Below, in pieces: positions 16,803 through 42,507 of a stretch of DNA of 42,987 bases. The stretch spans positions 1 to 42,987 of the forward strand of contig JBMCWH010000004.1 of the NCBI GenBank assembly GCA_048621635.1, written 5' to 3'. Below the pieces are notes generated by a model. The model worked only from the letters and a program-made list of their open reading frames with translations, was not told where the DNA came from and ran no database searches. Source of the stretch: Patescibacteria group bacterium. Lineage in GTDB: Bacteria > Patescibacteriota > WWE3 > JAUXAW01 > JAYEID01. How positions within the stretch are numbered: the stretch's first letter is position 1; the number at the start of each line of letters is the position of its first letter. The translations under genes were made by a program, and so were the position numbers.

Positions 16803-17015
16803 CTGGTAAGAGTTAAAGACAAAAAGAAAAGACTCCGAAGATGCGTGAAGTTTTTACAACTTTGTGTTTCTTTTGAATCTTTATTTTTCCTTTCTCGCTG
16901 CCCCCGAGAAATTTTTTCACTAACGTTTTTGCACAAATTGGTCCTTGTAGATTGATCAAATTTGTGGTTTGCTATTAACACTGACCAGTTTGAAAAAACT
17001 GGTTGTATTTTTGCT

Positions 17016-19124
17016 ATGCCTGTCCAACCACCAAAGAAAGTTGAAAAACGAGACGGCCGTATAGTTCCCTTCGAACGGGAAAAAATTGTTAACGCGATCT
17101 GGAAAGCTGCGCAATCTGTGGGCGGTAAGGATAAAGACCGCTCCCGTTTTATTACGGATCGTGTAATTGAAGAACTCTCCAAGAACTTCGGTTCTGATGA
17201 TATCCCCAAAGTAGAAGATATCCAAGATATTGTTGAGGAAACCTTAATCGAATATGGACATGCAAAAACTGCCAAAGCGTATATTCTTTATCGCGATCTT
17301 CACAACCGTATTCGCGATATTCGCAGTTTGGTGGATGTAAATGAGTTAATTGGTTCTTATCTTGATCAGTCTGATTGGAAGGTTAAAGAAAATGCTAATA
17401 TGGCTTTTTCTTTGCAAGGTTTAAATATTCATGTCTCTTCGGCAATGTCTTCTCGTTATTGGTTAAATAAGCTATATCCCAAGGAAGCACGGGAAGGCCA
17501 TTCGCGCGGGGATCTTCACATTCACGATTTATATTTGCTGGCTCCTTATTGTTGTGGTTGGGATTTGCAAGAACTTCTTTTGCGTGGGTTTGGCGGTGTC
17601 CGTGGGAAGATTGAATCTGCTCCTCCAAAACATTACCGGGTTGCGTTAGGGCAGTTAGTTAATTTCCTTTATACGGTGCAAGGAGAAGGTGCAGGTGCGC
17701 AAGCTGTGTCCAATTTTGATACTTATCTAGCTCCCTTTATCCATTACGATAATTTGTCTTATGAGGATGTAAAGCAGGGGATGCAGGAATTTATTTACAA
17801 CATGAATGTTCCTACCCGGGTCGGCTTCCAGACGCCATTTACAAATATTACTATGGATTTGGAAGTTCCTGAATATATGAAAGATGAACCAGCGATTATT
17901 GGTGGTGAATTGCAAGATAAAACTTATGGTGTGTTTCAGGAGGAGATGGATATGTTTAACAAAGCCTTTGCGGAAGTTATGATGGAGGGTGACGCCTCGG
18001 GACGTGTGTTTACTTTTCCTATTCCTACTTACAATATTACTTCCGATTTTGATTGGGATAAGCCAGTTTTGGATCCTGTTTGGGAAATGACGGCAAAATA
18101 CGGTATTCCTTATTTTTCCAATTTTGTTAATTCGGATATGGACCCTGAGGATGCGCGAAGTATGTGCTGCCGATTGCGTTTGGACAACAGAGAACTGCGT
18201 AAGCGGGGTGGGGGCTTGTTTGGTGCTAATCCTTTGACAGGGAGCATTGGAGTGGTGACTATTAATCTTCCGCGAATTGGTTATCTTTCTGATACACGGG
18301 AGGGATATTTTTCGCGCTTAGACGAATTGATGGAGGTGGCACGACACAGTTTGAACTTGAAGAGGCGAGTAGTGGAAAATTTCACAGAGAAAGGTTTGTA
18401 TCCTTATTCTAAAGTTTTTCTTTCTTCCGTAAAAGAGCAGTTTGGGGAGTATTGGCGAAACCACTTTAATACTATTGGGCTAGTAGGGGGGAATGAATCT
18501 ATGCTTAACTTTTTGGGTGAGGGATTTAGAAGTGAAGAAGCACGCGTATTTTTGGGTGAAGTCTTGGATCACATGCGTGAGCGGTTGGCTACTTTCCAGG
18601 CAGAGGATGACCAGATGTACAACTTAGAAGCTACGCCAGCGGAAAGCACTGCTTACCGTTTAGCTAAGAAGGATAAAGAGTTTTATAAGGATATCATTGT
18701 CGCTAATGAGGAAGAATATGCTGAACAAGGTGCTGATCCTTATTATACTAATTCTTCTCAGTTACCGGTGGGTTTTGATGGGGATGTTTTTGCTGCCTTG
18801 GATCTTCAGGATTCTTTTCAAACCCGTTATACAGGAGGGACAGTTTTTCATACTTTCCTGGGCGAGCGGATGCCCTCGGGGGAGGCAACTAAGTCATTGG
18901 TGAAGAAAATTGCGGAAAATTATCAGCTTCCTTATTACACAATTACTCCCACCTTTAGTATTTGTCCGGAGCATGGCTATATTCGGGGGGAGCATATGTT
19001 CTGCCCTGAATGTGAGAAACCTTGTGAAGTTTATTCCCGTGTAGTTGGTTATCTTCGTCCAGTCAATCAGTGGAATGCTGGTAAGCAAGCGGAATTCTCC
19101 GACCGAGAGGAATTTGCTGTTTAA
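17016..19124 (+). CDS. nrdD: Anaerobic (class III) ribonucleoside-triphosphate reductase with N-terminal ATP cone
   Basis: ATP cone VEKRDGRIVPF...AKAYILYR; HIHDL, PYCCGW, SMCCRL, Zn motif CPEH/CPEC, glycyl-radical motif RVVGYL. Confidence 0.96.
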   Translation: MPVQPPKKVEKRDGRIVPFEREKIVNAIWKAAQSVGGKDKDRSRFITDRVIEELSKNFGSDDIPKVEDIQDIVEETLIEYGHAKTAKAYILYRDLHNRIRDIRSLVDVNELIGSYLDQSDWKVKENANMAFSLQGLNIHVSSAMSSRYWLNKLYPKEAREGHSRGDLHIHDLYLLAPYCCGWDLQELLLRGFGGVRGKIESAPPKHYRVALGQLVNFLYTVQGEGAGAQAVSNFDTYLAPFIHYDNLSYEDVKQGMQEFIYNMNVPTRVGFQTPFTNITMDLEVPEYMKDEPAIIGGELQDKTYGVFQEEMDMFNKAFAEVMMEGDASGRVFTFPIPTYNITSDFDWDKPVLDPVWEMTAKYGIPYFSNFVNSDMDPEDARSMCCRLRLDNRELRKRGGGLFGANPLTGSIGVVTINLPRIGYLSDTREGYFSRLDELMEVARHSLNLKRRVVENFTEKGLYPYSKVFLSSVKEQFGEYWRNHFNTIGLVGGNESMLNFLGEGFRSEEARVFLGEVLDHMRERLATFQAEDDQMYNLEATPAESTAYRLAKKDKEFYKDIIVANEEEYAEQGADPYYTNSSQLPVGFDGDVFAALDLQDSFQTRYTGGTVFHTFLGERMPSGEATKSLVKKIAENYQLPYYTITPTFSICPEHGYIRGEHMFCPECEKPCEVYSRVVGYLRPVNQWNAGKQAEFSDREEFAV

Positions 19125-19136
19125 CAGCTTGTGAGT

Positions 19137-19880
19137 ATGTCTGTAGATATACGTGGTTTGCAAAAGACAACTCTTCTTGATTACCCCGATAAGGTTGCTT
19201 GCACAGTTTTTCTTTCTGGTTGTAACTTCCGTTGTCCTTTTTGCTATAACCGGGATCTGGTTTTGGCTCCTGAGAAGTTGCCAGAAATTTCGGAAGATTA
19301 TTTTTTTGCTTTTTTAGATAAGCGGAAAGATGTGTTGGATGCAGTAGTAGTTTGTGGAGGAGAACCTACTCTTTATCCGGAGTTACCTGGGTTTGTGAGA
19401 GCAATTAAAGATGCGGGTTTTTTGGTTAAACTTGATACTAACGGTACACGTCCGGAAAAAGTTGAATTTTTGTTAGAGGAAGGATTAGTTGATTTTGTAG
19501 GGATGGATATTAAGGCAAGACTACAGGACCAAGCTTATAGCGATGTGGTTGGTCTAGAAGACTTTGCAGAGCAGGTTGGGTTAGAAAGAATAACAAATAC
19601 TTTGGAATTGTTGATAAATTCTGATGTAGATTTTGAGCTAAGAACAACAGTGGTTCCTGGCCTGCATGATAAGGATGTTTTGTTGGCCATCGCGCGTGAC
19701 TTGAAAAAGTTCTTTTCCTCCACAGAAGTGCGGAAAATTCCCTGGGTAATTCAAAAGTTTGAACCCCGTGATTGTATTGATCCTGCTTTTAATGACCGCG
19801 AACCTTATCCACGAACAACTTTGCGGAAATTTTTAAAAGCTGTCCAAAAGATCATTCCAGAGGCAAAGCTGCGGGCGTAA
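19137..19880 (+). CDS. nrdG: Anaerobic RNR activating radical SAM protein
   Basis: LLDYP, CNFRCPFC (CxxxCxxC), GGEPT, KLDTNG, ELRTT; directly after nrdD. Confidence 0.93.
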   Translation: MSVDIRGLQKTTLLDYPDKVACTVFLSGCNFRCPFCYNRDLVLAPEKLPEISEDYFFAFLDKRKDVLDAVVVCGGEPTLYPELPGFVRAIKDAGFLVKLDTNGTRPEKVEFLLEEGLVDFVGMDIKARLQDQAYSDVVGLEDFAEQVGLERITNTLELLINSDVDFELRTTVVPGLHDKDVLLAIARDLKKFFSSTEVRKIPWVIQKFEPRDCIDPAFNDREPYPRTTLRKFLKAVQKIIPEAKLRA

Positions 19881-19917: not shown

Positions 19918-20724
19918 ATGAATTCAGTTAATTTTGTTCCTGAGACACCAGAGGAGGTCTTGACTGCTCTTTCTGAAGAAGATCTTCGCGAGCTTGCGTT
20001 TTCTTTTTCCCTTCCGGAAAGTTTGCAACAAAAAAATCCCAGCTTTTACCGTTTATACGGAGGGATGAGGAATGCTGTTGTTCTTGCTAAATTTTCTGAG
20101 CAAGAAATGTTTGTCTTAACTATTTACAAGCCTTCTCCAACAGCTGGGCAGAGGGTGCGCCGCTCTTTAGGGGTTAGTAAATTTCTTTGCAAAAAAGATT
20201 TTCTTGTCCCTTGCTTTTTAGAAACTAAGCATAATAAAGACTTTTTGGAATTAGAATTGTTAGGTGTTAAACGATATATTTCTTTTCATCGCTTTAGGGG
20301 AGGGCGGAAAATTTTTCCTTACGGACCTGAGCAGATTGTACCTGCGGGTAAATTTCTTTCTCAGTTACACAAGGCTTTGCGAGAATTTCCTAGCAAAGAG
20401 TTGCTGCGTCCGTTTCCAGAAGAAGAAATTAATGGTGATCAGGAGTTTACCGTTTTGCATATGGATTATGCACGGGGAAATATTCTTTTTGATTTGGACG
20501 GGACAGAGGTGGTGGGTGTTTTAGATTTTGAAGAGGCGACCTGGGGCCCTCCGGTTGCTGATATTGGAAAGTCATTAGCAATTTCCACTAAGGATAATAA
20601 GGACCTATCTCGTCGGGTAATGGTTGATTGCTTTTTGGACGGTTACAATAGTGGTCCTTTACTGATTGAGGATAGGAAACTAGTAAACAAATGGATAGAT
20701 CATTTTGCTCCTATGATAGTCTAG
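19918..20724 (+). CDS. APH/choline-kinase/type II homoserine kinase-like phosphotransferase
   Basis: AGKFLSQLH, Brenner motif HMDYARGN, VLDFEE, DIGKSL, FLDGY. Confidence 0.8.
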   Translation: MNSVNFVPETPEEVLTALSEEDLRELAFSFSLPESLQQKNPSFYRLYGGMRNAVVLAKFSEQEMFVLTIYKPSPTAGQRVRRSLGVSKFLCKKDFLVPCFLETKHNKDFLELELLGVKRYISFHRFRGGRKIFPYGPEQIVPAGKFLSQLHKALREFPSKELLRPFPEEEINGDQEFTVLHMDYARGNILFDLDGTEVVGVLDFEEATWGPPVADIGKSLAISTKDNKDLSRRVMVDCFLDGYNSGPLLIEDRKLVNKWIDHFAPMIV

Positions 20725-20965
20725 TTATCTATATTGCTGAACACGGTCTTTGGTTCTTTTTTACTCTGTATTTTTTTCTGCTATTATTGATCTTGAATTT
20801 GGCAACGATTTTCTCCTTCCTTTAGAAAGTGCTATAGCCTAGCTTTGGGAGTGCGCCCTGCCAAGGTTAAAAATGCTGCCAGCTTTTTTAGGGCTTCGAG
20901 GTGCAGTTTGTTGATTAGTAACTTGGTATGTTTTATTATCTGAAATTTGGTAGCTAAATTTTTAT

Positions 20966-22111
20966 ATGTCAGCAGCTCCTGTTTTGAAACTAGAAGATGT
21001 GAAGAATATGGTTCAGTCTTTGCGGGGTAAAGGTAGCCGGATTGTTTTTACCGTGGGTGCTTATGATCTTATTCATTCGGGACAGAGTCATTTCCTTGCC
21101 GAGGCGCGTACCTGGGGTGATTGTTTAGTGGTCGGGGTAGCAAGCGACGCTTCGCGTAGGCAGCTGCGTGGCCCAGGACATCCTCTTGTTTCTGAGCAAG
21201 ATAGAGCAGAAACTCTCAGTTATTTTCGTCCTGTAGATGCAGTGACTGTGGTTGATGAGCGAGATCTTTTAGATGTTCTTTCTTTTTTGCAGCCTACTGT
21301 TTTTTACACTATTGAAGATGATTGGAAAAAAAATGTGCGATCTTCTGAAGAGGAGGAATTGGTATCCAGCTACGGAGGAAATGTGGTAAAGGCAGACAGA
21401 ATAGAGCCTTTTATTTCCAGTTCGGAGATCGTGGAAAAACTGGCGCGGTTTACGTTGTCTAAGCATTTAAACAGTTTTTTTGGTAAAGAAGTATTGAATA
21501 TTGGGAGAGAGGAACCTCCTTTTGTAGATTTAGGTGATCAGAAACCAAGGGATATTTTAAGTTATGCCTATTTGGGAGAGGTTGTTACCTGGGAGAATTT
21601 AGATAAATTGAGAAAAAAGCTAAGAAAGGAAAATAAAAGTATCAGTTTTGTAAGTGGGTCCTATGACTTAGTTCATGTTGGCCATGTTCGGTTTATTGAG
21701 AAAGCCAGTGAATGGGGAGATGTTCTTGTGGTTGGTATACCTTCTGATAAACAGATAAAGGAGTTGAAAGGTCCGCGGCGGCCAATTGTAAGTCAGCGCT
21801 CGCGGGCAGAGCTTTTGCGCTTTTTCCAACCAGTTGATTATGTAACTGTTCTTCCTGATTCTATGGTAAAAGCTTTGGATCTTTTGCACCCTGACGTTTT
21901 CCAGACTGTGGATGAGGCGTGGAACTCCGGATTTAAAGAGAGTCCGGAGTGTGCGACCGTGTGTGAGTATGGCGGAGAAATTAAGCTGGTTGAACGGCAG
22001 GCTCCTTTCGTCTCCTCGCAAAGGATGATTGAGAAAGCAGCAGGCTTGCGGGTAAGAAAAATGTTTTCTGCGTGTTTGGAAGCAGTAGGCCAAAATGAGC
22101 AAAGATCCTGA
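20966..22111 (+). CDS. Tandem two-domain cytidylyltransferase-like (RfaE domain II-like) nucleotidyltransferase
   Basis: Two repeats: GAYDLIHSGQ...GDCLVVGVASD...RGPGHP...RAE...VDAV and GSYDLVHVGH...GDVLVVGIPSD...KGPRRP...RAE...VDYV, each ending in an SS motif. Confidence 0.88.
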   Translation: MSAAPVLKLEDVKNMVQSLRGKGSRIVFTVGAYDLIHSGQSHFLAEARTWGDCLVVGVASDASRRQLRGPGHPLVSEQDRAETLSYFRPVDAVTVVDERDLLDVLSFLQPTVFYTIEDDWKKNVRSSEEEELVSSYGGNVVKADRIEPFISSSEIVEKLARFTLSKHLNSFFGKEVLNIGREEPPFVDLGDQKPRDILSYAYLGEVVTWENLDKLRKKLRKENKSISFVSGSYDLVHVGHVRFIEKASEWGDVLVVGIPSDKQIKELKGPRRPIVSQRSRAELLRFFQPVDYVTVLPDSMVKALDLLHPDVFQTVDEAWNSGFKESPECATVCEYGGEIKLVERQAPFVSSQRMIEKAAGLRVRKMFSACLEAVGQNEQRS

Positions 22112-22568
22112 TTTTTACAGTCCTGAAATACAGAAAAGTGCTCGGCAGGGTGGTTATAAATATGCGGAGATTTGGCAAAGCGTTGACAAGTGCCCGTTCT
22201 GTGATCTTAAGGAAAAGTACATTGTTACCCAAGACAATGATGTAGTTTTAACAGCGAACCTATTTCCTTATGTTGATTATCACCTTTTGATTATTCCCCG
22301 TAAGCATGTTTTGCTACTTTCTGAGTTATCAGAAAATGATTGGTTGGCAGTACGTAGACTTGCGGAGTTAGGTAGAAAGTTGCTAGAAGCTGTTACAAAT
22401 AATGATGCTTATACTTTTGTTCTTCGTGAAGGAAATAACAAAAAGAAAACAGTTCAACATCTTCATTTTCACCTGATTCCCTTCCACCCTGATTTGGAAA
22501 GTTGGCAGTATCAGAAGATAAATGTTTTGCCGCAAGAAGCTGCAGAGGAGTTTAGAGATGCTTTGTGA
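22095..22568 (+). CDS. HIT family nucleotide hydrolase
   Basis: CPFC, NLFPY, HLLIIPRKH, histidine triad HLHFHLIP. Confidence 0.9.
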   Translation: MSKDPDFYSPEIQKSARQGGYKYAEIWQSVDKCPFCDLKEKYIVTQDNDVVLTANLFPYVDYHLLIIPRKHVLLLSELSENDWLAVRRLAELGRKLLEAVTNNDAYTFVLREGNNKKKTVQHLHFHLIPFHPDLESWQYQKINVLPQEAAEEFRDAL

Positions 22569-22607
22569 CTGGCGAAAAGGAGAGCCTGTTTACTTTTGTA
22601 TTTGAAA

Positions 22608-23087
22608 ATGAACAACGCTGACAAAAATACAACAATTAAACAAAAAGATTTAAACTTAATGAAAAAAGCCTGTTTGCTTTGCGACCAGGCGACATGTATG
22701 TACAAAACAGCTTGTCTGGCTGTGAAGAATGGAAAGGTAATTGTTTCTGCCTATAATGAAACTTTGCCCGGAGAAAAATATTGCCAGGATGGTGAATGCA
22801 TCCGCAAGAAGTTGAGTTTAACTAACGGGGCAGATATTGGTAAAGTGTGTTCTATCCATGCCGAGGTAAATCTGATTGCAAAAGCAGCTGCCAGCGGTCT
22901 TTGCTTAAAGGATAGCACTATTTATGTTACTACTTTTCCCTGTTATGTTTGTTCAAAGAGTTTAGTTCAGGCCAGGATTAATTATCTTTACTATATGTCT
23001 GATTATGCTTGTAATGAGGGTGGTTGTTTTTTCAAGGCGGCAGATATTCCTATTTTCAAGATTCCTGAGGAAAAGGTATGGCAATAA
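22608..23087 (+). CDS. dCMP deaminase family (Zn-dependent cytidine/deoxycytidylate deaminase)
   Basis: HAEVN and PCYVC Zn motifs, AYN and Cys-rich CIRK segment. Confidence 0.88.
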   Translation: MNNADKNTTIKQKDLNLMKKACLLCDQATCMYKTACLAVKNGKVIVSAYNETLPGEKYCQDGECIRKKLSLTNGADIGKVCSIHAEVNLIAKAAASGLCLKDSTIYVTTFPCYVCSKSLVQARINYLYYMSDYACNEGGCFFKAADIPIFKIPEEKVWQ

Positions 23088-24523
23088 GTAATTCTATTTA
23101 CTTTAAAGAAAAATTAACTGTTGGAAATTCTGATTCTCCTGTGGCTATTTGTACTCTTTGGACACCTAAGGAGAAGCTATTAGATAGTCTTTCTTCGGAT
23201 TCTTATTTTTTTGGAGGGCAGCTTTACTCACCCCGTGGCCTAAATTTTGTTGTGCGGAATTTGCTTACTTATCCTAAGATTCAGTATCTTATCCTTTGTG
23301 GAAAAGATTTGTCTGGTGCCGGACAAGTTTTGGTCGACTTTTTTACGGGTAAAGACATTCCCGAAGGAAGCATTGATAAGGAAGTACCAAAGGAAGCTAG
23401 GGAGTTGTTGATTGAAACTGTGGAGTTGATAGATTTGCGTGGTGAAGAAGATACAGGCAAGCTAGAAGAAATGATCTCTTCGCTAGATTTATCTAAAACT
23501 TCTACAAGGGAACCAATGCGGTACCCGCAACCAGAAAGAGATAGTGAATCTTTCCCGACAGATTTTTCTGTGTTTAAAGTGCGGGATGATTTTGTTGGGG
23601 AGGTGTGGTTGTTGGCCTTGAAGAATATATTAAAATTTGGTCTTTCTATGCAGCGGATTGGTGGCCACCAGGTTTTAGCAGTGAATAATTTAGCTGCCGT
23701 TATTGAGAAGGAGGATCCGAAAGAGCCAACTATTTATCCTTTCTTCGATTTTGATCAAGAAGGTGTGCAACATTATTGGGAAAATTTTTCTGATCCTCAA
23801 TTACAGGGACATTCTTATTCGTATGGTGAACGGTTAAAAAATTATTGCGGTATCAATCAAGTGGAGATTATGAAAGAAAAATTGGCTCGCTTTCCTGCAG
23901 AGGAAGGTGCGTTAGCTGTACTGTGGAATGTGGAAGAGGACAACTTTCCTCCTGATGACGGTGGGCAAACGCCCGCTGGTAAACAGGAGGGCTGGAATGT
24001 TCCTTGTTTGGACTTAGTGCAAGCTCAATGTTTTGCTAACCAATTGTACCTGACGGCTTACTTTCGAGCTAACGATATTTTTGGAGCTTGGCCGCGAAAT
24101 GTTTTTGCGCTGCGCCGTTTACAAGGGGAGCTTGCGGAGAGTGTAGGGAAAGGTATTGGTTCTTTAGTAATTGTTTCCCAATTTGCCTGGATTAGTGAGT
24201 CAGTAGGTGCAAGGGTGGAAGAAATTCTGGACAAATATTATCAGCCGCGTTGTGTATGGGATCCAAGAGGAAACTTTCTTATCAGTGTTAAAGGGGAGCA
24301 GATTTTGGCTACTCATCTTTCTCCGCAAGGAATAGAATTGCAGAAGTTTAGTATTAATGGTAAAACCAAGAAAGCCGCGGTTAAGCTTTGTCAAGAGATT
24401 ATTGGGGAATTAGCTATATCTGACTTAAACCATGCTGCAGACTTGGGTCGGGAATTGGCTAAGGCGGAAACTGCTGTAAAGAATGGCTTGAAATATATTC
24501 AAGACCAGCCTTTAGATTTTTGA
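23078..24523 (+). CDS. Fusion: MtrA-like domain + thymidylate-synthase-like domain + DUF4346-like domain
   Basis: N-term VGNSDSPVAICTLWT...GQLYS..GLNFVVRNLL..PKIQYLILCG; middle YSYGERL, NQ, LWNV..D, PCL, YFRANDIFGAWPRN; C-term DPRGNFLI...HAADLGRELAKAE...YIQD. Confidence 0.82.
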   Translation: MAISNSIYFKEKLTVGNSDSPVAICTLWTPKEKLLDSLSSDSYFFGGQLYSPRGLNFVVRNLLTYPKIQYLILCGKDLSGAGQVLVDFFTGKDIPEGSIDKEVPKEARELLIETVELIDLRGEEDTGKLEEMISSLDLSKTSTREPMRYPQPERDSESFPTDFSVFKVRDDFVGEVWLLALKNILKFGLSMQRIGGHQVLAVNNLAAVIEKEDPKEPTIYPFFDFDQEGVQHYWENFSDPQLQGHSYSYGERLKNYCGINQVEIMKEKLARFPAEEGALAVLWNVEEDNFPPDDGGQTPAGKQEGWNVPCLDLVQAQCFANQLYLTAYFRANDIFGAWPRNVFALRRLQGELAESVGKGIGSLVIVSQFAWISESVGARVEEILDKYYQPRCVWDPRGNFLISVKGEQILATHLSPQGIELQKFSINGKTKKAAVKLCQEIIGELAISDLNHAADLGRELAKAETAVKNGLKYIQDQPLDF

Positions 24524-24601: not shown

Positions 24602-24856
24602 ATGGATAAGAAAGCGGTTTACATTTCTTTAGGTGTTTTAGCAGTAGTTGGTATTTTTCTAACTGCTGTTTTACTAAGGCGGGTTCTCCGTTTTGAACAG
24701 GAGGCTGCAAAAGTTGAACGAGAAACAGAGCTTTCTCCTGTTGTAGAGGAAGAATCTTCTCCTTCTGCTCTTTTGGGAGATGACGAGGAAGAAGCTACTC
24801 CTAGTGGTAAACAGGGAACTCCTAGCGTCCCCCAATCTACACCTAGCGGAGAGTGA
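24602..24856 (+). CDS. Small single-TM membrane protein with acidic/Ser-Pro tail
   Basis: 84 aa ORF with N-terminal hydrophobic helix and ATPS/TPS repeats; TGTTATACT upstream. Confidence 0.7.
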   Translation: MDKKAVYISLGVLAVVGIFLTAVLLRRVLRFEQEAAKVERETELSPVVEEESSPSALLGDDEEEATPSGKQGTPSVPQSTPSGE

Positions 24857-24946: not shown

Positions 24947-24967
24947 TCCCCCGTAAGGGGGATTTTT
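24947..24967 (+). terminator. Intrinsic terminator-like hairpin
   Basis: tccccc-gtaa-ggggga followed by ttttt. Confidence 0.55.
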
Positions 24968-29874: not shown

Positions 29875-30138
29875 ATGGCAAAATCAAAAGCAACTGGTTC
29901 AAAAGCAAGACAAAAGAAAAGACCTGCTGGGAAAAGATTAGGCCTCAAGGTGGGGGCTGGGGAGGCTGTTGGGCCAGGTGAAATTCTTGTTCGTCAACGC
30001 GGTAGCAATTTCCATGCAGGGAGGAATGTTAAACAAGGACGCGACTTTACCCTTTATTCGCTTGCTGAAGGAGTAGTGAAATTTGGTAATCTTCGTGGTG
30101 GGCGTAAGTCCCTTTCTGTAATTCCTTCTGACAATTAA
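29875..30138 (+). CDS. rpmA: 50S ribosomal protein L27
   Basis: KRLGLK, ILVRQRG, GRNV..GRDFTLY, GVVKF; follows rplU. Confidence 0.94.
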   Translation: MAKSKATGSKARQKKRPAGKRLGLKVGAGEAVGPGEILVRQRGSNFHAGRNVKQGRDFTLYSLAEGVVKFGNLRGGRKSLSVIPSDN

Positions 30139-30247
30139 TTCCTTTTCCTTCACATAAATACAATTACTTACCTGTTCCTAATTTGGATAAATTTATTTTG
30201 TAGAGAATTTGTTTATTAGCTGGGTTTAGACAGCTTGGCAGTTATTG

Positions 30248-30841
30248 TTAGTCCAGTTCGGGATATTTAGGAGTTTTTGTAATAGAAAGCTTTTCTGTTG
30301 GCCAATAGCGGATCCACGCTTTACCTATTATTTCACTACGGGAGACAAGTCCCCATTCACGCGAATCTGAGCTGCCGGATCTGTTATCTCCCATAACAAT
30401 GTAATGGTTTTGGGGGATGTTGAATTTGTGATTTTCGTTAAGAAATGTATCTCCTTCTGTTTTTGTTCCTGGGCTAAGATAGGGTTCTTGGAGAGTTACA
30501 CCCTCTGGGTGGCTAGGGTTGAATATTTTAATTTCTCCATTTTCTATCAAAATACTTTCGTTGGGGAGTCCGATTACCCTTTTAATATAATCGTACTCTG
30601 GGGCTTTGGGATATTTAAATACTACTGTCTCACCTCGTTTGGGATCACGAAAATAGTAAGTTACTTTTTCTGTTAGGAGATAGTTATTGTCGCTAAAAGA
30701 AGGTTCCATTGAGGCACCGTTTACCTGGTGAGTTTGGACTATGAATAAGTAGCCTAGAGCGAAAAGAGCAACGGCGAGGACAACCACCTCTAGTGTGTCG
30801 AGAATAAAGTTTCCAATACCGGAAAGAAGTTTTTTTAACAT
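30248..30841 (-). CDS. lepB: Signal peptidase I
   Basis: N-terminal TM, GASMEP (catalytic Ser), YIKRVIGLP (Lys), MGDNR..SSDSREWG. Confidence 0.94.
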   Translation of the reverse strand: MLKKLLSGIGNFILDTLEVVVLAVALFALGYLFIVQTHQVNGASMEPSFSDNNYLLTEKVTYYFRDPKRGETVVFKYPKAPEYDYIKRVIGLPNESILIENGEIKIFNPSHPEGVTLQEPYLSPGTKTEGDTFLNENHKFNIPQNHYIVMGDNRSGSSDSREWGLVSRSEIIGKAWIRYWPTEKLSITKTPKYPELD

Positions 30842-30933
30842 CTGTTCAATGATACCGACTGGTTAGTTGTCCTTCAAGGACTTTATTGTTAAAATATTGG
30901 TTGAACTGTAGAGTAAGGCTTAGTGTTTGTCAT

Positions 30934-31010
30934 GGTTGCGTAGCTCAGTTGGTTAGAGTGCCACATTCACATTGTGGAGGTCCCTGGTTCGAATCCAGGC
31001 GCAACCACCA
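30934..31010 (+). tRNA. tRNA-Val (CAC)
   Basis: Cloverleaf: acceptor GGTTGCG/CGCAACC, anticodon arm CCACA-TTCACAT-TGTGG, TTCGAAT T-loop, encoded CCA. Confidence 0.95.
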
Positions 31011-31138
31011 CGCTTTGTATCCTCCTTTTCTGTTTTATTATCTTGTACACGTTAGAAGGCCCACAATTCTACTGACGAGTTGCCTAAACTTCGGTGCAAG
31101 GTCATTACTTTTCTTTGCTTTATGGTAACATTGTCTCG

Positions 31139-32398
31139 ATGATAAAAAAGATTGAAATAGCAAAAAATACTCTTTACCAGATTGTTGGTAAATTCTTTAC
31201 TGCATCCTCTACTCTTTTAGTAACAATGCTGGTTACGCGAACTTTTGGCCCAGAAGGGTACGGTGATTTTATGATTATGACTACCTATCCCTCTTTTTAT
31301 TGGATCATGGTTGATTTTGGATTTAATCAAATTGCAGTGAGAAAGATGCGTAGATCTCGCCAAGAATCTGTTCACATTTTTTCCGATCTCCTGTTTCTTC
31401 GTTTTTTTCTTAGCTTGTTCTTTTTTGCAATAGCTTGGATTGTTTTGCGATTTTTGCCCTATTCTGTCGCTGTTAAACAAGGCGCGAGTGTTAACCTGCT
31501 AAGCCTTTTCTTCCTCTCTTTTTTTCAATCTGTGTGTTCTTTATTCCAGGCCCGGTTAGATTACGGTCTTCAACTTATTGCTCAGATTGTTGGCGCGCTT
31601 TCCCGTCTTATTTTGGTTGGTCTTTTTGTTTATCTTGGGTTTAGCACGTTTTACACTGTGATGGGGGTTTTGTTAAGTTACTTTTTCCAAGCTTTTGCTG
31701 GCGCGCTTTTGTCGCGGAAGTTTTTAACTTGGGCTGATTTAAAAGTAAATTTCCCTCGTGCTAAAAAGCTTTTCTTTACCGCCATACCTGTTGGTCTTGC
31801 TCTTGTTTTTAATATTTTGGACTTTAAAATAGACAGTTTGATGCTCTCTATATTGCCCTTACCTGAGGGAATGAAAAACAACGCTGCGGTAGGTTTTTAT
31901 AGTACTGCATTTAAAATTTTCGATGTCGTTTTAGCTTTACCCTTCTTTTTCGTCAGCTCAGTATATCCTGTACTTATTTCCAGGTATAAAGAAAGTAAAG
32001 AGAAGGCTAGGTTCTTGTTTTCTAAAGCTTTTCGTATATTGCTTATGCTCTCTTTGGTCTGTTTTATTTTTGGGGAGCTCTTTGCTTCTTTAATGATTAG
32101 AGTTTTGGCTGGTGGAGAGTTTACTGCTGCTGTGTTACCTTTACGGATACTGTTTATTGGTTTACCCTTGTTTTTTTCTTCTTCTCTTCTTTCGCATACA
32201 GTTATGGTTCTAGATGAACAAAAAAAGCTACCCTGGATTTATGGGTTTGCAACAGTGGTGAATGTTTTCTTGAATTTTATTTTTATTCCTCGCTATGCTT
32301 ATTTGGCTGCGGCAGTAATAACTGGAGTAACAGAACTGCTAATTTTCGTTTATCTTCTACGCTTAGTTTTCCGGAGTAAATTATTTAATAGAGGCTAA
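31139..32398 (+). CDS. Wzx-like polysaccharide flippase
   Basis: IAKNTLYQ, FGPEGYG, DFG, KIDSLML, AVGFYSTA, NFIFIPRY; many TM segments. Confidence 0.88.
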   Translation: MIKKIEIAKNTLYQIVGKFFTASSTLLVTMLVTRTFGPEGYGDFMIMTTYPSFYWIMVDFGFNQIAVRKMRRSRQESVHIFSDLLFLRFFLSLFFFAIAWIVLRFLPYSVAVKQGASVNLLSLFFLSFFQSVCSLFQARLDYGLQLIAQIVGALSRLILVGLFVYLGFSTFYTVMGVLLSYFFQAFAGALLSRKFLTWADLKVNFPRAKKLFFTAIPVGLALVFNILDFKIDSLMLSILPLPEGMKNNAAVGFYSTAFKIFDVVLALPFFFVSSVYPVLISRYKESKEKARFLFSKAFRILLMLSLVCFIFGELFASLMIRVLAGGEFTAAVLPLRILFIGLPLFFSSSLLSHTVMVLDEQKKLPWIYGFATVVNVFLNFIFIPRYAYLAAAVITGVTELLIFVYLLRLVFRSKLFNRG

Positions 32399-39815: not shown

Positions 39816-40034
39816 ATTTCTTTGACGTTGCCAAACGTCAACTGATTGTAGCGGATTTGTTTAGTAGGGCTGTAATAAATGTCTGTCACGTTTTTTATGC
39901 TTTTTGGGTTTTTTGCAATTGTTTGTATCTTAGTGTAACGTTTCTCGATTTCTGCTTTATTAGGTAGATTAGATTTTCGTTTAGATTTTGTTTCTGATTT
40001 TATCAGCCTTTGATTGTTAAGTATTAGGGAAAAT

Positions 40035-40059
40035 TGCCGGAGGTTAACTACCTCCGGCA
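40035..40059. terminator. GC-rich hairpin, possible terminator
   Basis: tgccggaggt-taact-acctccggca followed by T-rich sequence. Confidence 0.5.
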
Positions 40060-40194
40060 TTATGTGTTTTTTCCTCTTTGCTATTTTCGATTTCAATTTA
40101 ACTTTTTTTATAAATTTTTGTTTTTTTGATATAAGTGTGCTTTAATCGAATTGCACTCAAATAATCAACACACCCTTCTAGAAAGGAGGGCAAA

Positions 40195-40554
40195 ATGTCA
40201 ACTGGAGAAAGGAGCCGCCTTGAGAATATTAGTGAAGCTGTGGAGCTTGCTGCTGAGGCACATTTTCAGGATAAAGGAAGGTCCCCGAAGGATCATTCCT
40301 TAGCCGTCGGTTCCTTGGTGGAAAGCGCTTTCTTGACTGACCCTGAAGATATTATTCGACTTGAAGATGTTTGCAAGGCTTATAAACAGGGCGAGATAGC
40401 AACGGGGGAGTTTTCGCGAAAACTTCAGAGTTTTTACGACAATGTGTCGGAAGATGTTTCTGACGGTATTGTTAAGTTTGGAGTTATGCAACAGCTAAGG
40501 GGTGTCCTTGAAGCAGGGCCCGAGAAGATGCGCGCTGCAAGGAGAGAAGTTTAA
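40195..40554 (+). CDS. Hypothetical protein (orphan, 119 aa)
   Basis: ORF with SD AAAGGAGG, upstream TGCTTTAAT and a downstream terminator; no family recognised. Confidence 0.7.
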   Translation: MSTGERSRLENISEAVELAAEAHFQDKGRSPKDHSLAVGSLVESAFLTDPEDIIRLEDVCKAYKQGEIATGEFSRKLQSFYDNVSEDVSDGIVKFGVMQQLRGVLEAGPEKMRAARREV

Positions 40555-40589
40555 GTTTATTAATAGGGTGTTGATTTGTAGTGCAAACT

Positions 40590-40627
40590 GGAAGTGCGGG
40601 TTATACCAATCCCACTTCCTTTTTTTT
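40590..40627 (+). terminator. Intrinsic terminator
   Basis: ggaagtg(c)gggtt-atacc-aatcccacttcc followed by a T run. Confidence 0.7.
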
Positions 40628-40701
40628 GGAGCGGTGGAAGGGGATTGAACCCTCGACCTTCTGCTTGGGAAGCAGATGCTCTACCACTGAGCTACCACCG
40701 C
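40627..40701 (-). tRNA. tRNA-Gly (CCC)
   Basis: Reverse complement GCGGTGG...TCTGC-TTCCCAA-GCAGA...GGTTCAATCCC...CCACCGC-T-CCA. Confidence 0.95.
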
Positions 40702-40834
40702 ATACGCCCCCACCACTAACCGGGTCAGACGTGGCCAACCGCGTCAAACGTAGTTCTTTGTCGGGGGCATAACTTGTATCTGTCTAATACTTTCTTCTGG
40801 CTGACAGCGGAAAGCTGTGAGCCCAATTCTGATT

Positions 40835-41380
40835 TTAGGGCAACACTAATGTTTGTCCAACCTCAATTAATGCTTGTGATCCGTCTGGTAGGTAGCCAAT
40901 TTGCTCGCTGTTGGCATCTCGAATCTTTGTCCATTCAAACCCAGAGCCATAACGCGCTTCTGCTATTTCCCATAAAGTATCACCGTTCTTTACCGTGTAT
41001 TCATCTTCTTCAATGTCGCCGGGCTTGTAATCTGTAGGTTGCCATGTGGCTTTTGCAGTATCTTCTTCTGTTGCTACTTCTTCTCCCAATTCTTCTAACT
41101 CAGTAACTGTTTCCCCTTCCGTTCCCTCAATTTGTCCTTCCTCCTCCTCCTCCTCCTCCTCCTCTTCTGTAATAATTTCAGCTCCTTCCTGTTCATTTTC
41201 TATTTCTTCTTCCAGTTGCTCTTCTACACCAGGCTGATTGTAAATGTCGCCTTCTTCTCCAATTTTTGAGAAGTAGTTGTATACCAAGAATCCCGCTATA
41301 ATTACAAGTATTCCTGCACCAACTGCTGCAGCCTTGCTTTGAAAATCTTCACTTTCTAAGACATCGTCAATTTCAGGCAT
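40835..41380 (-). CDS. LysM peptidoglycan-binding protein with TM anchor and poly-Glu linker
   Basis: YTVKNGDTLWEIAEARYG...W..I..AN...LIEVGQTLVLP; N-terminal TM; SD AGAAAGGA. Confidence 0.9.
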   Translation of the reverse strand: MPEIDDVLESEDFQSKAAAVGAGILVIIAGFLVYNYFSKIGEEGDIYNQPGVEEQLEEEIENEQEGAEIITEEEEEEEEEEGQIEGTEGETVTELEELGEEVATEEDTAKATWQPTDYKPGDIEEDEYTVKNGDTLWEIAEARYGSGFEWTKIRDANSEQIGYLPDGSQALIEVGQTLVLP

Positions 41381-41740
41381 TTTTTCCTTTCTGGGCAGTT
41401 ACAACTTCCAATAAATGATCTTTCCCTTTCTCTTGTTTTTCTCTCCTTCCTGAATTTGTTTTTTTCTCTCTTCTTTCAAGTTTTTGGACTTTTCTTTTGC
41501 TCTCCTTTGCGACAAGTTATCTAGATTTGCAGAACGGAGCTCCACTGATTCAAGATTTTTGGTTTCTTCTTTTATGTTTTAGAAGAGAACTATCTTGAAA
41601 TCTCTCCTTCAAAATCATTGTACCAAAAGGAATTTTTTTTCACAATCAGGAATTTTTAGTGGGAGATAAAAAGATTATCAGGTAGATTTGAGAGTGTGGC
41701 GTTAAGAAGGGTGGGCCCCTGAGCGGGGCATCACCACAGT

Positions 41741-41851
41741 GCGAGTTTCTTTTAGTCACCCTACGCATAAAGCTTCGGGTGACACTCCTTCGTCTAAACT
41801 CGCGTCCGGATGGCCGAAGACCACCCGTAACTCGTTAAGAGCGGAGGGTGG
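41741..41851. repeat. Nested hairpins in the tRNA-Asp 3' trailer
   Basis: gcgagttt/aaactcgc enclosing gtcaccc/gggtgac; ccaccc...gggtgg overlapping the tRNA CCA end. Confidence 0.55.
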
Positions 41852-41924
41852 CGGGACCGACGGGATTCGAACCCGCGACCTCTTCCTTGACAGAGAAGCG
41901 CGCTAACCGCTGCGCTACGGTCCC
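41849..41924 (-). tRNA. tRNA-Asp (GTC)
   Basis: Reverse complement GGGACCG...CTTCT-CTGTCAA-GGAAG...GGTTCGAATCCC...CGGTCCC-G-CCA. Confidence 0.95.
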
Positions 41925-41939
41925 TTGACTCACCTTGTT

Positions 41940-41968
41940 ATAGTAGCAAATTGTAATAACCTAGTCAA
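41940..41968 (-). promoter_or_regulatory. sigma70-type promoter of tRNA-Asp
   Basis: On - strand TTGACT, 17-nt spacer ending TGC, then TACTAT. Confidence 0.7.
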
Positions 41969-42507
41969 CAGCACTTGTGAATACTAACTTTACAGTGAAT
42001 CCCTTATCCTATCAGGCTCTCCAACGCAAAGCGTTGGAGAGCCGCATAAAATAAGGGAAAAGAAAAGATTTTGCGTAAACAGGTGGCTCCAGAAGCTTGG
42101 TTTTTGGAGCACTGTCAGTATAAGAAAAAACCAAGTACTCAAAATTGCTCTTGGCAAAACCGCTCTCCTGGCAGCATTTACTAGTACACGCTACAAGGAA
42201 ACTGTAAAACTCAAAGAGTGTATAAGTTTGGCCATTATAAATCCTGTTTTTGTAAATTTTGCTTTGATCGGTTACTAAAGATTTGTGAATAATGTACAAT
42301 ATACAATACATTGTATGGACTACAGTATTTTTACTTTGTCTACCTCTTAAGTCAAAGAGATTCTGAGTCGACTTTGTTGAAAACAGTCCACTTGATTACT
42401 GGGGTGATGCATCTGTCTTAGAAATGCCCCTGTTTCTCTTCATCAAATTCTGCTATACTTAAAGTGTTATTTGGCGATTATTTTCTTAGAAAGAAGGTGA
42501 TACAAAT

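Follow-up and report, generated by a model that had tools for sequence, protein, structure and literature searches.

A conserved gene module of probable role in dTMP supply in Patescibacteria, with a nucleotidyltransferase, a HIT protein and a three-domain thymidylate synthase

Deoxythymidine monophosphate (dTMP) is made through dCTP deaminase and dUTPase, or through dCMP deaminase, and then by ThyA together with dihydrofolate reductase (DHFR) or by ThyX. A locus in a bacterium of the Patescibacteria raises the question of what a small-molecule kinase, a nucleotidyltransferase and a HIT-family protein are doing beside enzymes of this route. The stretch analysed, referred to here as the window, is contig JBMCWH010000004.1 (C4 in our numbering) of assembly GCA_048621635.1 at its full length of 42,987 nucleotides, and it belongs to a genome (G000) of 630 kb in 34 contigs that is 89% complete. 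Five open reading frames (ORFs) follow each other on the forward strand behind the genes of class III ribonucleotide reductase (RNR): a kinase of the APH fold (19918–20724), a tandem cytidylyltransferase-like nucleotidyltransferase (NT; 20966–22111), a Hint-like nucleotide hydrolase/transferase of the HIT family (HIT; 22095–22568), a dCMP deaminase-like zinc deaminase (dCD; 22596–23087, with an alternative ATG start at 22608) and a three-domain thymidylate synthase (TS fusion; 23078–24523). An initial annotation, made from the letters of the window, had listed these five co-oriented genes at these coordinates with their spacing, and the ORF listing confirmed it: the kinase and NT are 241 nt apart, NT and HIT overlap by 17 nt, dCD and the TS fusion overlap by 10 nt, and between HIT and dCD there are 27 nt if dCD begins with the TTG at 22596 or, as annotated, 39 nt if it begins with the ATG at 22608. 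Its domain assignments (APH, two CTP_transf_like domains, HIT, dCMP_cyt_deam_1 and the thymidylate-synthase-like fusion) also stood in Pfam and NCBIfam searches.

Conservation of the gene cluster

The TS fusion was searched against 401 sampled genomes of the phylum and 47 of them matched, 28 with full-length relatives and 19 with an ordinary ThyA (roughly 250–330 aa, one of them inside a 797-aa frame). Two further full-length relatives were added from an order-level search, giving 30 fusion genomes in total, which span about 17 families, although relatives among them do not count as independent samples. The 30 TS-fusion loci were retrieved with about 9 kb on either side and the ORFs were compared. 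One genome (G023; locus L045, 7164–10476) was seen to carry a plain 317-aa ThyA beside dCD together with a divergent 481-aa fusion TS. Orthologues of NT, defined by E <= 1e-41, were found in 15 of the 401 sampled genomes, the 99 other NT matches being weak paralogues (E ~1e-23 or weaker). In 11 of these 15 genomes HIT and then dCD lie downstream of NT on the same strand. The other four differ in that Nudix stands instead of HIT (G149), HIT-dCD is 7 kb off (G008), the genes are split over two contigs (G153) or NT is at a contig edge (G279). Counts of gene content were made on 17 NT-bearing genomes, among which G004 is included by inference, its contig starting inside dCD.

Gene order was identical to that of the window, nrdDG-kinase-NT-HIT-dCD-TS, in the window's own family (L037, L039), and adjacency to nrdDG was seen only there. 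In family f47, which belongs to another class, the order is kinase-NT-HIT-Nudix-dCD-TS with a single-domain NT, and its member G149 has Nudix without HIT. G250 and G111 have NT-HIT-dCD-TS; family f4 has NT-HIT-dCD, two unrelated genes and then TS; and G123 has the kinase, NT, a HIT::Nudix fusion and dCD with no ThyA-type match. The outer flanks of the locus change from lineage to lineage, and NT>HIT>dCD is constant. The two genes between dCD and the TS fusion in the f4 loci (L049, L050, L053, L054) code for an ELP3-like radical-SAM/GNAT protein and a class I methyltransferase. The dCD proteins of f47 and G123 (e.g. L042, 7964–8917) are about 320 aa long and have an N-terminal extension of ~170 aa without a Pfam match. 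The kinase is directly upstream of NT in families f1, f47 and f73.

An independent scan of metagenome contigs with the NT alignment gave 45 NT-orthologue loci, which were reduced to 30 groups at 90% identity; the denominators that follow are groups with enough downstream DNA. HIT is downstream of NT in 26 of 27 testable groups (in the exception, L115, it is apart from NT), dCD in 21 of 23 (exceptions L103 and L124) and the TS fusion in 18 of 19 (exception L138). On the upstream side the kinase query was negative in all 28 cases, and nrdDG was found in none of the 25 metagenome loci for which 4 kb or more before NT was available. Pfam searches of ten ORFs upstream of metagenome NT genes identified topA five times, a second HIT gene and CTP synthase twice each and a cyclophilin once, and an eleventh ORF is a glycosyltransferase. 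DNA topoisomerase I is the usual upstream neighbour of NT in the metagenome loci. The second HIT gene, which is shorter, lies just upstream of NT in L114 (3697–4170) and L134 (6030–6506), and in L103 (3–1661) and L124 (453–2141), the two groups lacking dCD, the gene next upstream of NT is that of CTP synthase (PyrG).

Gene fusions point in the same direction. HIT is fused to dCD in P0121, P0122, L128 (confirmed by Pfam), L130, L132, L141 and L142, and NT is fused to HIT in P0147, which is present on 3 contigs. In L112 (6305–8515) a single frame of 737 aa contains an APH segment, two cytidylyltransferase domains and HIT, and in L098 HIT is fused to Nudix. Among the fusions seen, HIT is joined to dCD and never to TS. 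Since the arrangement recurs in other genomes and in metagenomes it is more than chance. The order comparisons, the metagenome counts and the fusions indicate that NT>HIT>dCD>TS is the core, and that the kinase, Nudix and nrdDG are lineage-specific additions. The idea that the extra enzymes belong to one module together with the deaminase and TS fusion therefore holds for NT and HIT, which occur together with them across families of the Patescibacteria and in metagenomes, contrary to the outcome that the initial annotation had named as refuting it; the kinase is accessory, and the adjacency to RNR is a family trait.

A link between the module and class III RNR at the level of the genome was also considered and found not to be general. 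NrdD is present in 10 of the 17 NT-bearing genomes and a class I/II large subunit in 8, in 7 of them as the sole type.

The operon is a real and conserved module, probably for dTMP supply, that was previously uncharacterised, and it is probable, at a good level of confidence, that the function of NT and HIT is coupled to that of dCD and TS. The initial annotation knew of no described pathway with this gene set, and our search of the literature, which covered texts outside supplementary files, likewise found no description of the gene set or of the TS fusion. A passage of PMC12455944 on thymidylate synthase mentions a transferred thyA only.

The thymidylate synthase and the gene content of the genome

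The TS fusion is made up of an MtrA-fold domain (residues 3–144, nt 23084–23509), a compact methanogen-type ThyA domain (residues 160–390, nt 23555–24247) and a PterinBD-DUF4346 domain (residues 395–476, nt 24260–24505), all read from the forward strand. An AlphaFold2 model from a 68-sequence alignment reached a predicted local distance difference test score (pLDDT) of 92.2 and a predicted template modelling score (pTM) of 0.87. Residues 160–390 have the TS fold, with VIA matches to the flavin-dependent dCMP monooxygenase 9iqc (Z 23.2), MilA (21.8) and Brucella ThyA (19.2). In the 68 sequences P309, C310 and R330 are invariant and D333 and N341 are at least 90% conserved. C310, R330, D333 and N341 correspond to the catalytic Cys and to Arg166, Asp169 and Asn177 of ThyA (E. 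coli numbering), of which Asn177 selects uracil; His207 and Tyr209 of ThyA bind the 3'-OH of dUMP. Residues 370–373 read A-W-I-S in the window protein and A-W-[IVL]-[SADN] in the window together with its 8 closest relatives (P0001–P0009), the family consensus being A-H-I-Y. An extra insertion directly before the catalytic P-C-L was also seen in the window's clade.

Residues 3–144 have the fold of MtrA, with a VIA Z of 17.1 to 5laa_B (rmsd 2.3 over 138 residues, 24% identity), the next unrelated match being at Z 7.2; by sequence PF04208 scores 22.8 against a cut-off of 25. MtrA has His84 as cobalt ligand, Glu54 and the motif GAIPFxEN (PMC4915002). In the HMMER alignment to MtrA no residue of the query stands opposite His84, which lies in a gap of 2 residues; Glu54 is aligned with Ser51 and GAIPFxEN reads GSID--KE, and no conserved His is found in the ligand stretch of the 68-sequence consensus. 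Because His84, Glu54 and GAIPFxEN are lost, binding of a corrinoid in the manner of MtrA is unlikely. Corrinoid-dependent methyl transfer by this domain was considered and rejected, as the cobalt ligand of MtrA and the partners of that ligand are not kept.

The C-terminal domain matches PF14251 with 63.4 bits in the whole protein, against a cut-off of 29.6, and with 68.1 bits when the C-terminal 93 residues are taken alone. It is folded within the full chain, where the whole-model VIA search gave only weak structural matches to it (Z 6.5), and an ESM Atlas search with the DUF4346 part returned no usable match. The top whole-chain Foldseek match is T. cruzi DHFR-TS (TMq 0.34), and a single-protein TS search of genome contigs returned only an unrelated cyanobacterial DUF4346 match. 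At E <= 1e-5 the family comprises 172 clusters, which come from Patescibacteria, from DPANN archaea and from a small number of metagenome-assembled genomes of other bacteria; its members, where named, are called just 'thymidylate synthase'.

The TS fusion is the sole ThyA-type match in the genome. The genome was searched for ThyX, a second ThyA, DHFR, serine hydroxymethyltransferase (SHMT), GcvT, Fmt/PurN and thymidine kinase, and none was found; dUTPase, dCTP deaminase and Nudix also gave no match (MazG was not searched), and FolD gave a sub-threshold match of 19.9 bits only. Since neither another TS nor a thymidine kinase was found, dTMP would have to come from the TS fusion. It had been noted initially that the window has no folA, thyX, dut or tmk, and the genome-wide search then suggested for thyA, thyX and folA gave the result above. 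The absence of ThyX, DHFR and dUTPase extends to the whole genome; for tmk an ORF on contig C5 matches Tmk and Cmk weakly.

Gene content differs between groups of genomes. DHFR was found in 1 of 30 fusion genomes as against 13 of 19 plain-ThyA genomes, where it often adjoins thyA, and SHMT in 12 of 30 as against 17 of 19. Among the 30 fusion genomes the one DHFR match (G008:C3:67236–67580) is a weak one (8e-8), at a distance of ~2 kb from the fusion TS. Of the 17 NT-bearing genomes 5 have matches of the dUTPase family, as compared with 13 of the 15 fusion genomes that have no NT. Because fusion genomes are found without DHFR and often without SHMT, we infer that the added MtrA-fold and DUF4346 domains could hold or regenerate a pterin cofactor; that they might also act as a reductase is conceivable, as conjecture.

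A possible role for the nucleotidyltransferase and the HIT protein

The NT protein matches PF01467 with 94.7 bits (cut-off 21) in two stretches. Both domains had been annotated as carrying HxGH, which is correct for the C-terminal domain (HVGH) but not for the N-terminal one, where the motif has degenerated to HSGQ. By motif the C-terminal domain is the catalytic half; H237-x-G239-H240 is invariant in 40 relatives, in which the N-terminal motif is not conserved, and the single-domain NT versions correspond to the C-terminal, motif-bearing half. Among PDB sequences NT is closest to human ethanolamine-phosphate cytidylyltransferase (ECT) 3elb (1.3e-15, 2 stretches), followed by TagD, CCT and the cytidylyltransferase domain of Fom1 (5x3d, 8.9e-6). 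RfaE/HldE domain II (TIGR02199) is matched with 196.6 bits against a cut-off of 181.5, a score attained only by adding the two tandem domains; some NT relatives are named 'rfaE' in databases. NT is the only gene of the cytidylyltransferase family in the genome.

HIT (PF01230, 1.7e-15) has Hint proteins as its PDB matches and a complete triad, H122-L-H124-F-H126-L-I, in the window protein. C33, C36, H122 and H124, which include the nucleophile position, are invariant in 13 orthologues. The dCD protein matches PF00383 with 61.2 bits (1e-16; cut-off 25), its zinc motifs H88-A-E90 and P115-C116..C119 are invariant, and ComEB (TIGR02571) is matched with 69.5 bits, under the cut-off of 219.45. A prediction of the complex of HIT and dCD scored 0.00, which gives no verdict, and it was used neither way. 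The kinase matches PF01636 with 64.1 bits (2e-17; cut-off 23.2) and has both the catalytic loop H-x-D-x4-N and the metal-binding D-F-E, H181, D183, N188 and D203 being invariant in 8 orthologues. Its AlphaFold2 model (pLDDT 91.6) has homoserine kinase II, N-acetylhexosamine 1-kinase, amicoumacin kinase and aminopropanol kinase as its nearest PDB folds. The spacer between the kinase and NT (20725–20965) is peculiar to the window, relatives having ~40 nt there; it gave no Rfam match, and it holds two promoter-like hexamer pairs at chance-level frequency.

Which of its neighbours does the NT-HIT pair serve? Half of the TS-fusion genomes (15/30) have no NT orthologue, and in 5 of these loci dCTP deaminase and dUTPase flank the TS fusion, often with thymidylate kinase too; the database protein P0117 is even a fusion of dCTP deaminase, TS and DUF4346. 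These loci and P0117 indicate that two alternative feeders of dUMP stand beside the same TS, dCTP deaminase with dUTPase or NT with HIT and dCD. From the two feeders, G123 and the HIT::dCD fusions it follows that the NT-HIT pair goes with dCD and not with TS. This speaks against one of the roles initially proposed, in which the extra enzymes make or recycle a non-folate cofactor for the TS fusion. A related form of it, which assigns to the kinase, NT and HIT the synthesis or recycling of a dinucleotide-type cofactor (e.g. a flavin or pterin adenylate or cytidylate) needed by the TS fusion in place of the folate/DHFR cycle, would fit the near absence of DHFR and frequent absence of SHMT in fusion genomes, the weak matches of NT to the FAD, NAD and dephospho-CoA synthetases of its family, and the flavin-dependent enzyme 9iqc as the nearest solved structure to the TS domain. 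Yet the 15 fusion genomes without NT, the module of G123 without a ThyA-type match, the two unrelated genes that separate TS from NT-HIT-dCD in f4 and the fusion of HIT to dCD but never to TS make such a role quite improbable.

HIT enzymes form a nucleotidyl-His intermediate and release an NMP from an NMP-X conjugate, and HxGH cytidylyltransferases convert NTPs to NMP-phospho-conjugates. The chain that would most simply fit the gene order, the fusions and the gene content is one in which the C-terminal domain of NT joins (d)CTP, possibly also dUTP, to a phosphorylated small alcohol or amino-alcohol, giving a (d)CMP-phospho-conjugate and pyrophosphate (PPi). HIT, or Nudix where present, would then attack the alpha-phosphate of the conjugate, setting free the nucleoside monophosphate together with the phospho-alcohol. 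Overall, dCTP would be converted to dCMP and PPi with the phospho-alcohol recycled, after which dCD would convert dCMP to dUMP and the TS fusion dUMP to dTMP. The APH-fold kinase would supply the phospho-alcohol carrier in those lineages that have it. In this way the NT-HIT pair would be doing the job that dUTPase or dCTPase does elsewhere, and in the window's family the operon stands behind nrdDG, whose product is dCTP. Loci in which NT>HIT>TS occurs without dCD suggest that the pair may process dUTP likewise. A tandem ECT accepts dCTP (PMC2784872), and dCDP-choline and dCDP-ethanolamine occur in cells (PMC10505902).

That NT and HIT convert dCTP, and perhaps dUTP, to the monophosphate for dCD and TS in place of a dUTPase or dCTPase is our preferred reading, though a tentative one. 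A number of points weigh against it. The acceptor of NT and its nucleotide (CTP, dCTP, dUTP or ATP) are putative, as is the mechanism. A detour through two enzymes is more elaborate than a single pyrophosphatase, and dCMP could come from NDP or NMP kinases working in reverse, for which there is one NMP-kinase-like ORF, the P-loop frame of 177 aa on C5 with its weak matches to both the Tmk and the Cmk model. Two of the 23 metagenome groups, L103 and L124, have NT>HIT>TS without dCD; the HIT proteins of f4 are without the third His of the triad; and the kinase query was negative in most NT-bearing genomes, including 8 other NT-bearing genomes searched. The five NT-bearing genomes with dUTPase matches retain the enzyme that the pair would replace. 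With NrdD in 10 of 17 NT-bearing genomes only, a tie of the module to an NTP-reducing RNR is not general, and the contrasts of gene content are overstated because related genomes are not independent. The TS fusion scores 22.9 against the PF00303 cut-off of 24.3, and 100.8 bits (7e-29) against the TIGR03283 cut-off of 174.55; in the six-frame search of the genome PF00303 reached 24.1, or 24.5 counting frame neighbours, just past the cut-off. In the window's clade the equivalents of His207 and Tyr209 are replaced by Trp and Ser. The wider proposal, in which the two-step conversion of dNTP to dNMP by NT and HIT is combined with a self-sufficient TS (the added domains holding or regenerating a pterin, or some other one-carbon and reducing route being used) that works without DHFR, SHMT or another recognisable folate-cycle enzyme, is speculative and rather unlikely as a whole.

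The initial annotation had also suggested that host nucleotide conjugates are salvaged into dNMP precursors. The passage from conjugates to dNMP precursors comes closest to the evidence of all its proposals; the host-salvage form itself is a rival to the two-step conversion. Host-derived CDP-choline, CDP-ethanolamine or CDP-glycerol, or their deoxy forms, would be split by HIT (or Nudix) to (d)CMP for dCD, and NT would work mainly in the direction of pyrophosphorolysis to give CTP. Salvage draws on the same evidence of linkage and fusion as our preferred reading, and it would suit tiny genomes in which the usual consumers of CDP-alcohols are rare or absent, a module that in f47 and G123 includes Nudix enzymes, which split NDP-X, and the CTP synthase just upstream of NT in L103 and L124. 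We consider it unlikely, since no transporter is linked to the module, a kinase for phospho-alcohols would be superfluous although it is fused to NT::HIT in L112, and dCD requires the deoxy form, the deoxy-conjugates being trace metabolites (PMC2784872). The same kinase and NT could activate an alcohol for the cell surface in a Kennedy or teichoic-type pathway, with HIT as a housekeeping enzyme and the adjacency of dCD and TS as inherited synteny. ECT, TagD and CCT as the best PDB matches of NT, the amino-alcohol and hexosamine kinase fold of the kinase and a GT4 glycosyltransferase close by in f47 and L112 would agree with such an envelope role. It has a low probability, given that CDP-OH phosphotransferase (PF01066) was found in 4 of the 17 NT-bearing genomes and TagF-like (PF04464) and LicD (PF04991) proteins in 0, that NT>HIT>dCD stays constant as the outer flanks vary, and that HIT::dCD and NT::HIT fusions exist. 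In the window's genome PF01066 gave 0 matches, and a motif scan of 969 ORFs for CDP-alcohol phosphotransferase was negative.

Two further explanations concern the chemistry of a single member. HIT chemistry might in principle free PPi from an NTP, so that HIT alone would be a dCTP/dUTP pyrophosphohydrolase and NT a regulator or an unrelated catalyst, in favour of which are the degenerate N-terminal domain of NT and the separation of HIT from NT in L115. This is very unlikely, because 40 NT sequences share an invariant C-terminal H-x-G-H and further residues that look catalytic, the NT::HIT fusions and the translational overlap point to consecutive steps, and G149 has swapped HIT for Nudix and kept NT. 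The TS-like domain might also make a C5-modified pyrimidine nucleotide and not dTMP, the other enzymes tailoring the product, as had been suggested in the initial annotation. The dCMP hydroxylase/monooxygenase 9iqu/9iqc and the CMP hydroxymethylase MilA are among its structural neighbours, the window's clade alters the two ThyA residues that hold the 3'-OH, and the Pfam TS score is under the gathering threshold. But neither another TS nor a thymidine kinase was found in the genome, so that dTMP would have to come from the fusion, the uracil-selecting Asn341 is at least 90% conserved, the closest family by sequence is the methanogen-type thymidylate synthase TIGR03283 (7e-29), and other copies of the TS fusion are paired with dUTPase and thymidylate kinase, all of which makes a modified base highly improbable.

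Surroundings of the module, related systems and biological meaning

On one strand of the window the order is ftsA, ftsZ, nrdD, nrdG, kinase, NT, HIT, dCD, TS fusion, a small ORF and ileS. The nrdD gene (16962–19124) codes for a class III ribonucleoside-triphosphate reductase with an ATP-cone (PF13597, 5.9e-195; ATP-cone, 6e-25) and nrdG (19131–19880) for its radical-SAM activase (Radical_SAM, 4e-20; Fer4_12), both on the forward strand. In the two closest relatives NrdD is an ORF of 1027–1034 aa (G006:C11, L039 5259–8360; G007:C2, L037 918–3998) in which the PF13597 match is split (1–158/172 and 156–562). This implies an insertion of ~300 aa, possibly intein-like, which the 720-aa NrdD of the window does not have. 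The small ORF (24602–24856, forward strand, 84 aa, with a hydrophobic N-terminus) has no Pfam or NCBIfam match; it is kept only in the window's family, L037 and L038 matching it weakly, and whether it belongs to the module is doubtful. A terminator-like GC hairpin with a T run (24947–24962, forward strand), a consensus match only, may be the end of the operon before ileS. The scan of the window for promoters and terminators gave no excess over shuffled sequences, and the Rfam scan found 4 tRNAs only. The GC skew falls from ~0.2–0.3 to 0.06 and -0.05 at 30000–32000 and 40000–42000, where the gene strand switches and tRNA genes are located.

Among known systems the logic proposed here is shared by phage T4, in which the dCTPase-dUTPase gp56 acts with the dCMP deaminase cd and the thymidylate synthase td, and for which dUTPase, DCTPP1, MazG and NudI are cellular counterparts. 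In both a pyrimidine dNTP would be taken to dNMP and PPi, and dCMP to dUMP and dTMP, downstream of an NTP-reducing RNR; the difference would be that here two unrelated enzymes, an HxGH cytidylyltransferase and HIT, carry out the first step via a covalent conjugate. The Kennedy pathway (choline/ethanolamine kinase and ECT/Pcyt2) likewise uses an APH-fold kinase and a tandem cytidylyltransferase. Here, in contrast, the N-terminal cytidylyltransferase domain is degenerate, the genes that follow are HIT and dCMP deaminase, and CDP-alcohol phosphotransferase was not found in 13 of the 17 NT-bearing genomes, that of the window included. In fosfomycin biosynthesis the HxGH cytidylyltransferase domain of Fom1 attaches CMP to a phospho- or phosphono-alcohol, from which a hydrolase cleaves it off at a later step. 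There CMP is the handle and the alcohol the product, whereas in the chain proposed here the nucleotide would be the product and the alcohol the carrier.

The TS fusion can be compared in the same way. Like methanogen-type TS (TIGR03283) and ThyA (PF00303) it has a compact TS fold with the catalytic Cys and equivalents of Arg166, Asp169 and Asn177; it differs in the two extra domains around this fold, in both scores being under the cut-off and in the replacement of the His207/Tyr209 equivalents in the window's clade. The DHFR-TS of protozoa and plants also joins TS to a second module in one polypeptide, but the partners here are an MtrA fold and DUF4346 and not DHFR. The N-terminal domain shares its Rossmann-type fold with MtrA (5laa, 5l8x; PMC4915002), the corrinoid subunit of the methyltransferase that acts between methyl-tetrahydromethanopterin and coenzyme M (methyl-H4MPT:CoM methyltransferase), but not its cobalt ligand, Glu54 or GAIPFxEN.

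Supply of thymidylate is essential to cells and it is a classic drug target. The present analysis indicates that a large group of ultra-small bacteria and, by database matches, some DPANN archaea appear to run dTMP synthesis differently, with a ThyA-type enzyme that carries two additional domains and without DHFR. In one branch the NT-HIT pair occupies the place that would be expected of dUTPase. If the proposed chain is true, it would give HIT proteins and cytidylyltransferases a further, new role in physiology, and it would account for the supply of dCMP to dCMP deaminase in these cells. It would also raise the question of how a ThyA enzyme can work without a folate cycle.

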